Source: Eledone cirrhosa (taxonomy: Eukaryota). Taken from it: a DNA stretch of 64,000 nucleotides. The notes below the pieces were generated by a model. The model did not search any database and was not told where the DNA came from. It saw only the letters and a program-made list of their open reading frames with translations. The translations under genes and the position numbers were made by a program. Numbering within the stretch: the first letter of the stretch is position 1; each line of letters begins with the position of its first letter. Below are positions 11,001 through 30,803 of this stretch, piece by piece. Location of the stretch: the NCBI GenBank assembly GCA_964016885.1, contig OZ024743.1, positions 370,822,001-370,886,000 on the forward strand, given 5' to 3'.

Positions 11001-11685
11001 ATAATAAGGAATCACTCTTGTAAGTTCAATGATTTCCACATGTTTAAAATGCTTATTTTGATATAATTTTTGTGCAATATGAGGTAGTAGCCTTTGCACT
11101 CAAGAAATGAGTCTATAATTTTCACCCCACAAAAATTCTTTGCAAATGGAGACCCCCGCAAATGGAGACTGTCCACAGAACAGAACAGCCAAATTTTTAT
11201 AAAAATCAAAATGGCTAATTTGAATTTTAAGAAAGAAATCTTATTGGTCAGTTTATATATTCCCTAGAGGCTAGCAACACACAAACAAAACTGATCCCTC
11301 TGATAAAAAAAAAATAAAGTATTAATGGGATAAAAAAAAACAGCAACAACAACAACATCAACAGCTACAACAAATTATACCCCCCCCCCCCCCCCCACTG
11401 CAAAAGCATTTGAAATATTAAAGTTCAACTACCACCACTGTGACAAGACCAACAGCTACAACAATACCAGCCTACACCACCGCAAAAACATTTGAAACAA
11501 GCAACAACTTAGGTGGTGTTGGCACAATAACACTGCCAAAGTCTTAACAGACAGCTACAACAACAATTCTACCACAAACATCAACCCCGTACCAGCAATA
11601 GTCACAACACAAGTAGAATACTACCACTTATGCTGCTGCTACTACTACTACTACTAATAATAATAATAATTATAATAATTATAAT

Positions 11686-14600
11686 GCTTTCTTTATTAAC
11701 CACAAGGGTTTACACAAAGTAGACATTAAGGACAGTACAGGACAATACAGGATGGTACAAATGGACATTTCTGCGTGTAAAAAAACAAAAAACAGAGGAT
11801 GTAACAAAAAAAGAAACAATGAAAAATTCCCCAATAGGGGGGAGACTTCCGAGGGACATTCATGGAGAAAGCCCATTAAAAAAAAGCCACGGTGACCCTG
11901 ACCACCAGGGCAAGTGCCCTCTTCCAGTTTTCCACCTTCAATTTACAGGCACATACTCAGAGTAGGCCCATTCACATGGGCCATTCTTGCTTCTCACCCA
12001 TCTTTCAACAAAATGTTGGGAAGAGAGCACTTCCCTCTCTACCCTGATTTTCCTTTTTAAATGAAATTTGAAAAAGTTAATCAGGGTATCACCGAAGAGG
12101 TAAGTGCTCGTCTTCAGCCCTTTCAAACGTGTCCACAATACTATTTCTTTCGCCATGGCCACCAGACAGATAAGAATTGCCTGACCTTCCCGGTTAAAGG
12201 AAGAGGGCGGGGCAATCCTCACGATGGACTCAGCTGATAGCTGGATCCGTCCTACACGTGACAGCAGGTGTTCGACATAAACCCACAAGTCAGCAATGCT
12301 CGGTCACTGGACGAGTGCGTGCAGGATGGTTTTGTCGCCCTGCGCGCTTCTCGGACATGCCCGGCTGACGGTACCTCCATACCTGTAGAGTTTATCCCGA
12401 ACTGGCAAAGCTCCTCGGTAGCACTACCAGGCCAGGGATTTCTGGAAATTGTCCATAGGCCCCGGCCCGAAAGTTCTTCCGAAGAGATTGGCTAGTTCAT
12501 TTTCGTCGACGCCTAGAGTTTCCCCAAGTACGTCGCCGTTAAGGAGACGTGCTGGGGAAAGACGCATCTAGCAAATGGCGACCACACCTGATCACCGTCG
12601 AGGAAGAGGTGCAGATGTCATAGCCTGAGTGCGTGTCTGCACATCATCAGCCACGGCATTCCCAACCCTCCACGTAGCGGGTGTTGACAGCAGATGGACC
12701 GCCTGACTATCGGAGCGCGTCCCTTCCAGAAAAAGCGAAAGAGAAACTGCTCCAGCGCAGTCAGGCGAGGCTTAGGACAAGGCACGACGGTCAGGCAGTA
12801 GTAGATGACAGACGCGATGTATGGGTTAGCCACCTCCGCGCGACCTTTCAGGGATAGCTTCTTCTCCGCCCATTTCTGGCTGAGAGAAGCCACCCTGCTC
12901 GTCACCTCGTCCCAGTTTTTGTCCGTCTGGAGGTCCGGACCAAACCAGACCCCTAGCAATTTAACCGATCTGTCCGTCCAGCGCCCGACAGCATGGACCT
13001 GCCTCTCCAGGTGCCGAGCTGCAGGCCCACCGACTTTTCCTGGTTGATCATTGCTCTTGTCACCGCTTCGTATTCTCTTAGTGTAGTGCTGATCTCCTCG
13101 ATGTGCTTGGCGTTCGACAGCACTACGGTGACATCGTCAGCATATGCTGACACGGATCTTCCGCATCCTAGTTCGCGCGGGAGCCCCCCTCAACGTCTTC
13201 AGTTTGTGCAGTAATGGCTCGAGAGTCAATACGTACAAGAAGGACGAGAGGGGACATCCTTGGCGGAGCGAGCGCATGATGTTGAACGGTTCCGAAAGGT
13301 GACCGTTCACTCTCACCACAGAGCAGATGTCGCTGTGCATGGCAGCGATCCAGCTTCTGAAGATGGTCCCAAAGCCAGCCGCCCTCGGGACTGCCGCCAG
13401 ATAACGATGGACGACTCTATCGAAAGCTTTCGACTGATCTAAATTGATCAAGGACCCACCCGTCCCTAGCTACCCTCTCCACAATGTATCTCATGAGGTG
13501 GAGGTATCTGTCAGGAATGGCACATGACTGCGCCTCTCCCACCAGACCACCAACGACAAGCCCCAACCTCTTTGCTAGCACCTTGGCCAAAATCTTGAAC
13601 TCTGTTTTGAACAGAGTTATGGGTCTGAAATTATCTATGTTATCCCCCTTGTTCCGCTCTTCGGCTCACAGAGCTGGGAATTCTCCCGTTCTGTTGCCAG
13701 TTGCAGTAGACGTCCGCCAAGAGGCCTCCGAACAAGTCTGGCATCTATACGTAAAGTTCATAGGGCAGACCATCCAAACCAAGCGATTTACCCGTTGTGC
13801 AGCCAGTCATTGCCTCCCGTATTTCAGCTGCTGTTATCGGCTTTTTGCAACACTCTGCCTCAGTGGCCGAGAGCCGCGGCAGTCCGTCGAGGTAGACACT
13901 AAAGTCCATCCGTCGATCTGGCTCTCCGCTGCCCGAACAGCTGAGGGAAGTGTCGCTGAGAAGCTTCACGCATTTGCCTGGGATCGAGTAGCATGCACTC
14001 GTCGTGGTCCACCAAAGACCGGATTGTGGCTTTGTTGACACAATAAGCCTCCACCACTTGGGCCCATTGGACGGCTTTCATCCCCTCGTGTCTGAGAGCA
14101 CGCACCCTAGCTCTGACAACGCAGCCTTCATGCTTTGCATTGAAGAATTGGTCAGGGGCCAATTCCGCCGCAAGTACGTCGGTCGCGATGCCTTTGCTAA
14201 GCGCCTCGTCTAATTTTCTAACTAGTTCTCCCTCTGCTCTATTTTTCTCTATTGCTAAAGCCTTACTAAACCTAATGGACTCTATTCTAATTGCACTTTT
14301 CAGAGCAAACCACCATTTGTTGTTGACGATGGCTCCCGTCAACACTCGCTTAACTAGTTCGCTAATCCGTTTTCCACCTCTGAAGACGGGCCCAAAGCCA
14401 GCCGCCCTCAAGACTGCCGCTAGGTAACGATGGTCGACCCTATCGAAAGCTTTCGACTGATCTAAATTGATCAAGGACCCACCCGTGCCAGGTTCCCTAG
14501 CTACCCTCTCTACGATGTATCGCATGAGGTGGAGGTTGTCGTGGATGGATCTATCGGGAATGGCGCATGTCTGCGCCTCTCCCACCAGAACACCAACGAC

Positions 14601-30614: not shown

Positions 30615-30703
30615 CCACAACTACAATGGTGGTGGTAACAGTGATGGTAGTGGCAGTGATGATGATAATGGTAGTGAAGAGAATGACGGTAATAATAATA
30701 ATA

Positions 30704-30803
30704 ATTGTTTCTACTTTTGGCACAAGGCCAGCAATTAACAGTGCATTACTGGTACTTTATTTTATCGACCCCCGTAAGGATGAAAGGCAAAGTTAACCTC
30801 GGC
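30704..30803 (-). mobile_element. 5'-truncated SINE family A
   Basis: Same 3' end, with a (TAA)n tail at 30690-30704. Confidence 0.8.

Follow-up and report, generated by a model that had tools for sequence, protein, structure and literature searches.

Families A and B, two groups of Tx1-type long interspersed nuclear elements (LINEs) in the octopus Eledone cirrhosa, very probably occupy (ATT)n microsatellites at both of their ends genome-wide and duplicate 15–20 nt of the target, probably by way of an endonuclease nick in the (TAA)n strand and reverse transcription primed on AUU units. They are described here from a 64,000-nt stretch of DNA (the window, positions 370,822,001–370,886,000, within a 3.0-Gb genome), in which they build a 19-kb array together with opposite-strand Dong-like LINEs that have a restriction-like endonuclease (RLE), short interspersed nuclear elements (SINEs) and one nested RTE-type LINE. 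An initial examination of the letters alone (the sequence-only reading) had proposed one (TTA)n-specific Tx1 family. The specificity for ATT stands while the single family does not: the ATT families number at least two, and (ATCT)n is occupied by a sister lineage.

Target specificity of families A and B

Junctions of genomic copies were collected with queries that exclude flank sequence, each genome search providing the best 40 of 572–4150 candidates. A full-length copy was scored as positive when a perfect ATT run of at least 8 nt is present at its 5′ junction; the count for family A omits the window copy and that for family B omits the query locus. All full-length copies of family A (29/29) follow (ATT)n and do so in the phase ATT|, and all those of family B (24/24) also follow (ATT)n. 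They are separate insertions because their upstream sequences differ. The background of such runs, measured upstream in the same loci, is 0.3–0.6% and 1.8%; it is 0.5% in 40 fixed-position stretches of 10 kb (400 kb). In raw reads from another study, 152 reads run from the family A 5′ end into AATAAT, only these six letters being visible. A (TC)n or (TTC)n target of the Kibi/Koshi type was not found, ATT being present at all 53 full-length A and B copies. Forty long family B loci were also extended; nested insertions and deletions confound their junctions, which are uncounted except for marked duplications and four 5′ ends.

The truncated copies come from 90 loci reached via their 3′ ends. In 36 of them, two being window copies, no junction is found within 1.5 kb; without these, a further window copy and a duplicate, 52 copies were scored, of which 26 pass the strict ATT test. 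With the identical score the RTE-type LINE gives 0/17 (12 loci without a junction and the window copy dropped; Fisher p = 9e-5 versus Tx1), and a Dong-like control gives 0/15 for ATT and 7/15 for TAA (14 and 1 dropped). Of the 26 copies that miss, about 14 adjoin, as judged by eye, a different ATT-tailed element whose 3′ end is eroded, consistent with deletion at the target. The outcome fixed beforehand as a refutation of the sequence-only reading was that 5′ flanks would mostly be other than TTA; the counts of 53/53 for full-length and 26/52 for truncated copies, against 0/17 for RTE, point the opposite way. They also exceed the level of over 20% of flanks of one type that PMC4494074, in the part covered, uses to define specificity. 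The (ATT)n target specificity of families A and B is well supported.

Target-site duplications, tails and the probable SINE partner

Target-site duplications were counted only where interruptions of the repeat mark them, pure repeats being uninformative. Interruption-marked duplications of 15–20 nt or more are found in six LINE copies (window copies 28658 and 18422, and loci L232, L247, L038 and L089). The 28658 copy has an 18-nt duplication and no extra tail, a feature shared by L232 and L247, while the 18422 copy has an 18-nt duplication plus six extra ATT units. The marked duplications imply that the repeat predates the insertion. None of the 136 distinct 3′ ends carries poly(A), and 116 of them continue as ATTA.

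The 3′ end of SINE A resembles the last 20–25 nt of the LINE and continues as ATTAT in 101 of 120 ends. Candidate duplications were recognized at 25 of 139 SINE A ends (12–26 nt, mode 18; 18 without extra tail), including a few tandem-SINE artefacts. The common 3′ end, target and duplication length support SINE A as a probable partner of the Tx1 LINE. Neither ARAGORN nor Rfam matched a tRNA-type SINE head in the window, a search that degenerate heads would escape. The sequence-only reading also held that each insertion renews the target through its own tail. Renewal is borne out, since at 29 of the 53 full-length copies the 5′ tract immediately follows another 3′ end (17 Tx1, 12 SINE). The route differs: renewal appears to occur mainly by duplication and only sometimes by the tail, because extra tail is absent from 18 of the 25 SINE candidates and from three clear LINE cases. 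Of the 32 tracts with at least four units in the fixed-position sample, 19 adjoin one of these elements (a raw count).

The (ATT)n at the 5′ end could instead be a part of the element itself, or a product of second-strand synthesis by template jump or slippage, insertion being otherwise loose in AT-rich DNA. Family B and ATCT-lineage 5′ ends do start with target-like letters, family B has variable GTT repeats at its junction, and truncated copies score 50% versus 100% for full-length ones. The repeat is, however, present at truncations of many different positions, its interruptions on the 5′ side recur on the 3′ side, and none of the 52 truncated copies lies in (TA)n, though (TA)n is 12 times commoner. 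This explanation is considered improbable.

Organization of the array

The 19,149-nt array holds 12 TAA/TTA runs of at least three units; none occurs in the rest of the window beyond positions 10,500–31,000 (43,500 nt). Its components are the following.

11655..11685, minus strand: imperfect (ATT)n, 3′ flank of the family A copy (flank reading)
11686..18384, minus strand: full-length Tx1-like LINE, family A; 5′ end set by 29 other genomic copies
18385..18421, minus strand: (ATT)n tract separating copies B and A; interruption-marked match to 23134–23151
18422..23133, minus strand: 5′-truncated family B Tx1-like LINE with internal deletions, one fusing ORF1 to the endonuclease
23134..23151, minus strand: 5′ member of the 18-nt target-site duplication around copy B, doubling as the (TAA)n tract at the 5′ side of the Dong-like copy
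23152..25833, plus strand: 5′-truncated Dong/R4-like RLE LINE, split by the RTE, with a (TAA)7 end; CCHC knuckle, RHD and PD-(D/E)xK-type motifs in translation
about 23905..25450, minus strand: young RTE-type LINE, 5′-truncated and (ATG)n-tailed, lying within the first Dong-like copy and outside the ATT system
25855..25953, minus strand: 5′-truncated SINE A between the Dong tail and a Tx1 tail
25969..27228, minus strand: 5′-truncated family B copy between (ATT)n tracts; 91% identity to the 18422 copy
27244..28275, plus strand: 5′-truncated Dong/R4-like RLE LINE of a second family, (TAA)n on both sides
28297..28614, plus strand: short 3′ fragment of family A type; exceptional (TAA)n as sense-strand 5′ flank
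28658..28991, plus strand: short family B 3′ fragment inside the tail of the preceding copy, without extra tail; 18-nt marked target-site duplication 28640–28657 / 28992–29009
29028..30616, minus strand: older 5′-truncated Tx1-like copy with non-ATT 5′ flank, interrupted at 29859–30106
30705..30805, minus strand: 5′-truncated SINE A with (ATT)5 as 3′ flank

Self-comparison and flank reading place the 3′ ends of the Tx1-like copies at 11686, 18422, 25969 and 29028 (minus strand) and at 28614 and 28991 (plus strand). All six are followed by ATT units, as first reported, with only two units behind the 29028 copy and an imperfect tail behind 11686. The report that four of them are also preceded by the repeat on their own strand was likewise correct (5′ junctions 18385, 23134, 27229 and 28657), and SINEs do adjoin the tracts, at 10830, 25856 and 30706. 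The family A copy features a 5′ untranslated region (UTR), an open reading frame (ORF) 1 with a CCHC knuckle (ATG at 18172) and an ORF2 (ATG at 16207) coding for an apurinic/apyrimidinic-type endonuclease (APE), a reverse transcriptase (RT) and a zinc knuckle. It is disrupted by stops and frameshifts and carries a 1-kb internal duplication (13356–14368 / 14379–15423). The tract 18385–18421 that separates it from copy B is composed of 18 nt of extra tail (18404–18421) and of the 3′ copy of the 18-nt target-site duplication (18386–18403). From the marked duplications two insertions can be placed in order: that of copy B, into a tract flanked by the A head and the Dong head, and that of the 28658 copy, into the tail of the 28300 copy (28297..28614). 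The interruption at 29859–30106 in the last Tx1 copy is a 248-nt inverted duplicate (99%) of 28234–28481, which spans the Dong tail and the Tx1 junction. Note that the sequence-only reading was silent on this duplicate, on the 1-kb internal duplication and on the nested RTE.

Passive accumulation or local duplication, that is, random insertion followed by survival or recombination at repeats and segmental duplication of the array, would find some basis in the internal tandem duplication, in the 99% inverted duplicate and in the erosion of some junctions. The marked duplications already refute most of this. At least six families, with individual duplications, are mixed in the array. Within one genome the type of flank is moreover family-specific (ATT, TAA, ATCT or TA), and the phase is exact at 29/29 family A ends. 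Such an origin is very improbable.

Structure and classification of families A and B

Family A measures ~5.8 kb where intact, as read in 20 genomic copies, and codes ORF1 and ORF2 (APE, RT, knuckle); its AATAAA lies six bases before the end, which is followed by (ATT)n. Full-length family B elements are 5.9–6.0 kb long and have a different 5′ end. Pairwise ORF2 identity is 94% in A (10 copies) and 95% in B (7 copies), and no unbroken ORF2 was seen in 20 copies of A and 10 of B. The ORF2 domains are matched by PF03372 (1e-13) and PF00078 (4e-12), and the translations show a C-terminal zinc knuckle CxxC...HxxxxC. The endonuclease catalytic residues N, E, Y, D/N, D and H are present. The best match of the family A endonuclease among solved structures is the L1 endonuclease, and its hairpin loop has the length found in L1. 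Elements of the Tx1 clade have a separate ORF1 with a CCHC knuckle; a CCHC motif is seen in ORF1 of both A and B, the Pfam zf-CCHC match (E 0.005) being under the cut-off. At the ORF1 stop there is a splice-donor-like site AG|GTAAGT, and a pyrimidine run comes after it, right before the ORF2 ATG, both here and in the ATCT lineage described below (window 16208–16260, minus strand; L431 about 2545–2590).

The LINE proteins are 57–72% identical to Argonauta hians proteins, and no named Tx1 protein is present among the protein-search matches. An Rfam scan of 60 of the 80 metagenomic relatives finds U1, U2 or U5 small nuclear RNA (snRNA) sequence in 11; in two of these the poly(A) end is joined directly to U2, which is a Keno-type site. 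These 11 elements are L272–L275, L281, L288, L291, L295, L299, L314 and L329, and only the U2 junctions were read as insertions. The RT tree has 41 rows, including 10 of the 11 snRNA-associated elements as anchors and six L1-like rows. It separates the octopod group and the 10 anchors (35 rows) from the L1-like rows with 100/98 support, in agreement with the initial Tx1 placement; among the six L1-like rows a single one, scoring 530 bits against human ORF2p, is clearly an L1, and the inner branches are tentative. The octopod group and unnamed ORF2 proteins of 1,150 amino acids form their own clade (100/100). These unnamed proteins (P0063, P0067–P0169; ~1,150 residues, RT 45–56% identical) are a large clade sister to the octopod group. 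Membership of the L1 clade is contradicted by the absence of poly(A) at all 136 ends and by the split in the RT tree; the assignment of families A and B to the Tx1 clade rather than to the L1 clade of mammalian type is supported, judging by sequence features. ATT tracts are also adjoined by additional Tx1-like families whose ORF1 or 3′ end is distinct (L035 and L050, after a family A tail; L037; L007/L010/L022, upstream; L439, L445 and L449).

A sister Tx1 lineage in (ATCT)n

The fixed-position sample contains relatives with ~70% nucleotide identity that have nearly the 3′ end of family A, followed by (ATCT)n, with a tandem stack in L447 (1–10000). Loci of this lineage are L447, L431 (2562–6350), L428 and L461–L510; the repeat is (ATCT)n/(GATA)n and there are at least two different 3′ UTRs. 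Full-length 5′ ends (19 found among 29 loci) follow strict (ATCT)n in 17 cases and degenerate repeat in two, none being in ATT; the background is 0.13%. Truncated 5′ junctions are, by eye, of ATCT type in 12/19. At the 3′ side, 16 of the 20 ends fetched from the best 40 matches run into (ATCT)n and the other four continue as AATAT. The latter (L494, L498, L504 and L506), two of which run into (TA)n, possibly represent a further target variant. Marked duplications are present in L496 and L502. The lineage is young, its best 40 matches being about 100% identical, and L431 has an unbroken ORF2 of 1,145 codons.

The endonuclease of the ATCT lineage is 58–59% identical to that of family A, and the region from endonuclease to RT 64%. 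The ATT families (100/99) and the ATCT copies (100/99) are separate clades within one octopod group, a topology that accommodates either target as the ancestral one. A changed endonuclease preference is the likely reason for the difference between ATT- and ATCT-type targets.

Dong-like LINEs on the opposite strand

Elements of the R4/Dong clade are characterized by a C-terminal CCHC knuckle, an RHD and a PD-(D/E)xK-type endonuclease. The two Dong-like pieces of the window (23152–25833 and 27244–28275) lack the RT but their translations carry the knuckle, the RHD and the PD-(D/E)xK-type motifs. At either end both read (TAA)n in the sense direction, in the same tracts as the Tx1-like copies, as had been noticed at the outset. 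In genomic copies the Dong-like tail is TAA in 28/29, and 11 of the 29 are joined tail-to-tail to an ATT element (by eye, three Tx1 and eight SINE). A third Dong-like family (L351–L375, L401–L410) has TAA tails in 22/24 by the strict score and TAA at the five truncated 5′ junctions seen (5/5); 14 of its 24 tails are joined to Tx1 or SINE ends. These joints agree with the sequence-only reading that an APE LINE, an RLE LINE and a SINE share the tracts from opposite strands. The third Dong-like family was also considered as a third Tx1 family (‘family C’, its 22/24 flanks being read as ATT); this was rejected, as it is Dong-like, on the opposite strand, and does not enter the Tx1 counts. The opposite-strand elements probably belong to the R4/Dong clade with a TAA-repeat target, an assignment supported by these motifs and junctions.

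The young RTE family with (ATG)n tail (window 23905–25450; L141–L170) has 8/17 of its truncated 5′ junctions in (TA)n, whose background is 6%.

Proposed insertion mechanism

The Tx1 endonuclease would nick the (TAA)n strand at a T/purine step, corresponding to Y|ATT on the top strand, and the nicked end would prime reverse transcription on the AUU units at the 3′ end of the RNA. Transcripts reading past AATAAA into the flanking repeat, combined with internal priming, would add from zero to about six units and account for the loss of poly(A). Each insertion would convert one tract into two, so that ATT-type elements stack head-to-tail, meet Dong-like ones tail-to-tail or head-to-head, and build arrays. 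The SINE would be mobilised in trans by these Tx1 LINEs, and the ATT/ATCT difference would be encoded mainly in the endonuclease. In SINE insertions without extra tail, T or C precedes the duplicated A in 17/17 (two tandem-SINE artefacts dropped), and those at L228 and L268 part from the tail at the second base, which places the nick within one base of Y|A. The predicted nick is thus bottom-strand 5′-AAT/R-3′, a T/A step in a pure tract; nicking at T/A steps is ordinary APE chemistry.

The main rival explanation is that specificity is set by RNA–DNA pairing. Nicking at T/A would be loose, only those nicks that pair with an (AUU)n or (AUCU)n read-through tail would prime efficiently, and the target would be inherited from the flank of the donor. 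This is in line with 3′ junctions that overlap the target without extra tail, with the almost identical 3′ ends of family A and the ATCT lineage, with the L1-length hairpin loop of the endonuclease and with SINE targets that can be a mere ATTA. The 5′ flanks, however, lie 15–20 nt from the nick, beyond short pairing, and are yet pure repeat in 53/53 full-length copies; two SINE insertions share a single base with the tail, and the endonucleases of the two lineages differ at about 41% of residues. Pairing as the source of specificity is rather unlikely, and both processes may act together.

Several points weigh against the proposed (ATT)n targeting and its mechanism. Pairing of RNA and primer could account for part of the specificity without any endonuclease preference. 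The position of the nick comes mostly from SINE insertions, among which only L228 and L268 fix it apart from RNA pairing, and the pyrimidine bias is weak (chance about 0.007), A being excluded by construction. SINE targets as short as ATTA imply that, at least in trans, the specificity amounts to a strong preference. Among truncated copies, half fail the strict test, and about 11 of the 52 have no ATT-related flank, which is unexplained. Two of the six window copies deviate, the 28300 copy having sense-strand (TAA)n at its 5′ end and the 29028 copy a non-ATT 5′ flank. Sampling is limited to the best matches of each search. No empty orthologous site was seen: repeat copies overwhelmed the comparison of L079 with contigs of four runs, in which no contig joined the two sides of the insertion.

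Endonuclease-directed insertion may be part of a wider history, to which we give about even weight: an octopod Tx1 radiation in which endonuclease specificity switched between (ATT)n and (ATCT)n while the 3′ end and T/A nicking were kept, and which together with Dong-like LINEs and SINEs would form a self-propagating niche holding or making most long ATT tracts.

Relation to known target-specific elements

Microsatellite-targeting Tx1 elements are already known. In teleosts, Kibi and Koshi of the Tx1 clade reside in (TC)n and (TTC)n, while Tx1 families of crocodilians occupy (TTCC)n/(TTTC)n, as described in the text covered of PMC4494074 and PMC3812793. The Eledone families resemble them as APE-type Tx1-clade LINEs residing in a microsatellite; they differ in their (ATT)n and (ATCT)n targets, in their invertebrate host and in forming their own 100/100 clade, in a tree without named Kibi or Koshi sequences. 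How microsatellite targeting by APE-type LINEs arises is described as still poorly understood (PMC3812793, part covered). The ATT and ATCT targets are what is new for Tx1 elements, as far as the sources covered extend. No report of an ATT- or ATCT-targeting Tx1 was found in open-access text, the parts covered of PMC3747384, PMC4758252, PMC9004415, PMC10294476 and PMC8869645 holding nothing on it; Repbase may hold such notes. In Octopus vulgaris, 80 L1-Tx1 and 51 Dong-R4 consensus families are listed, with no target-site analysis in the parts covered (PMC13282606), and the families described here may be among those.

Sharing of a target by unrelated elements also has precedents. TRAS and SART of silkworm telomeres are two R1-clade APE LINE groups that use one tandem repeat from opposite strands, with priming by read-through repeat RNA. 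Keno (Tx1) and Utopia (RLE) both target U2 snRNA at one site with identical 3′ flanks, according to the part covered of PMC4640811. The array shares with them the convergence of APE and RLE elements on a common target. Unlike Keno and Utopia, its elements enter a microsatellite from its two opposite strands, and each insertion adds to the common target; the Keno-type anchors have poly(A), which A and B lack. Dong of silkworm, mosquito and snail resides in TAA repeats (PMC3812793, part covered), like the RLE elements of the window with TAA at both ends and the three such families recognized, but here the tracts are shared with APE LINEs and SINEs. The crocodilian pair Tx1-Mar and SINEU, in which the SINE shares its partner's preference for a Mariner (PMC4494074, part covered), differs from the present pair in that the target here is a microsatellite.

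Two sister lineages with different targets and thousands of search candidates lend themselves to a direct endonuclease swap experiment and to very large junction statistics. If the proposed specificity is true, their endonucleases are a natural experiment on how APE domains gain or change sequence specificity. The nested LINE/SINE stacks also bear on the swelling of octopus introns, and many octopod ATT and GATA microsatellite markers are likely transposon junctions.

Host locus and other repeats

The array had been described as intronic, which is correct: it lies inside a 45-kb intron of an MTMR6-9 gene, since exons coding for PF21098 with GT/AG ends flank it. The minus-strand exons 54,746–54,860 and 9,710–9,873 are consecutive exons of the GRAM domain, match PF21098 positions 1–47 and 41–92, respectively, and have splice sites that were read directly. 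A third minus-strand exon matches the myotubularin phosphatase domain.

54746–54860, 9710–9873 and about 450–630, minus strand: exons of the MTMR6-9 (myotubularin-related) gene; PF21098 and phosphatase domain matches
9874..54745, minus strand: MTMR6-9 intron enclosing the array; PF21098 halves on two exons, splice sites

Other repeats of the window are a degraded RT-bearing LINE (55841–57183), a GIY-YIG (Penelope-like) fragment (58742–59101), a transposase helix-turn-helix fragment (31977–32171) and a minisatellite of 14.8 units of 24 nt (49751–50104).

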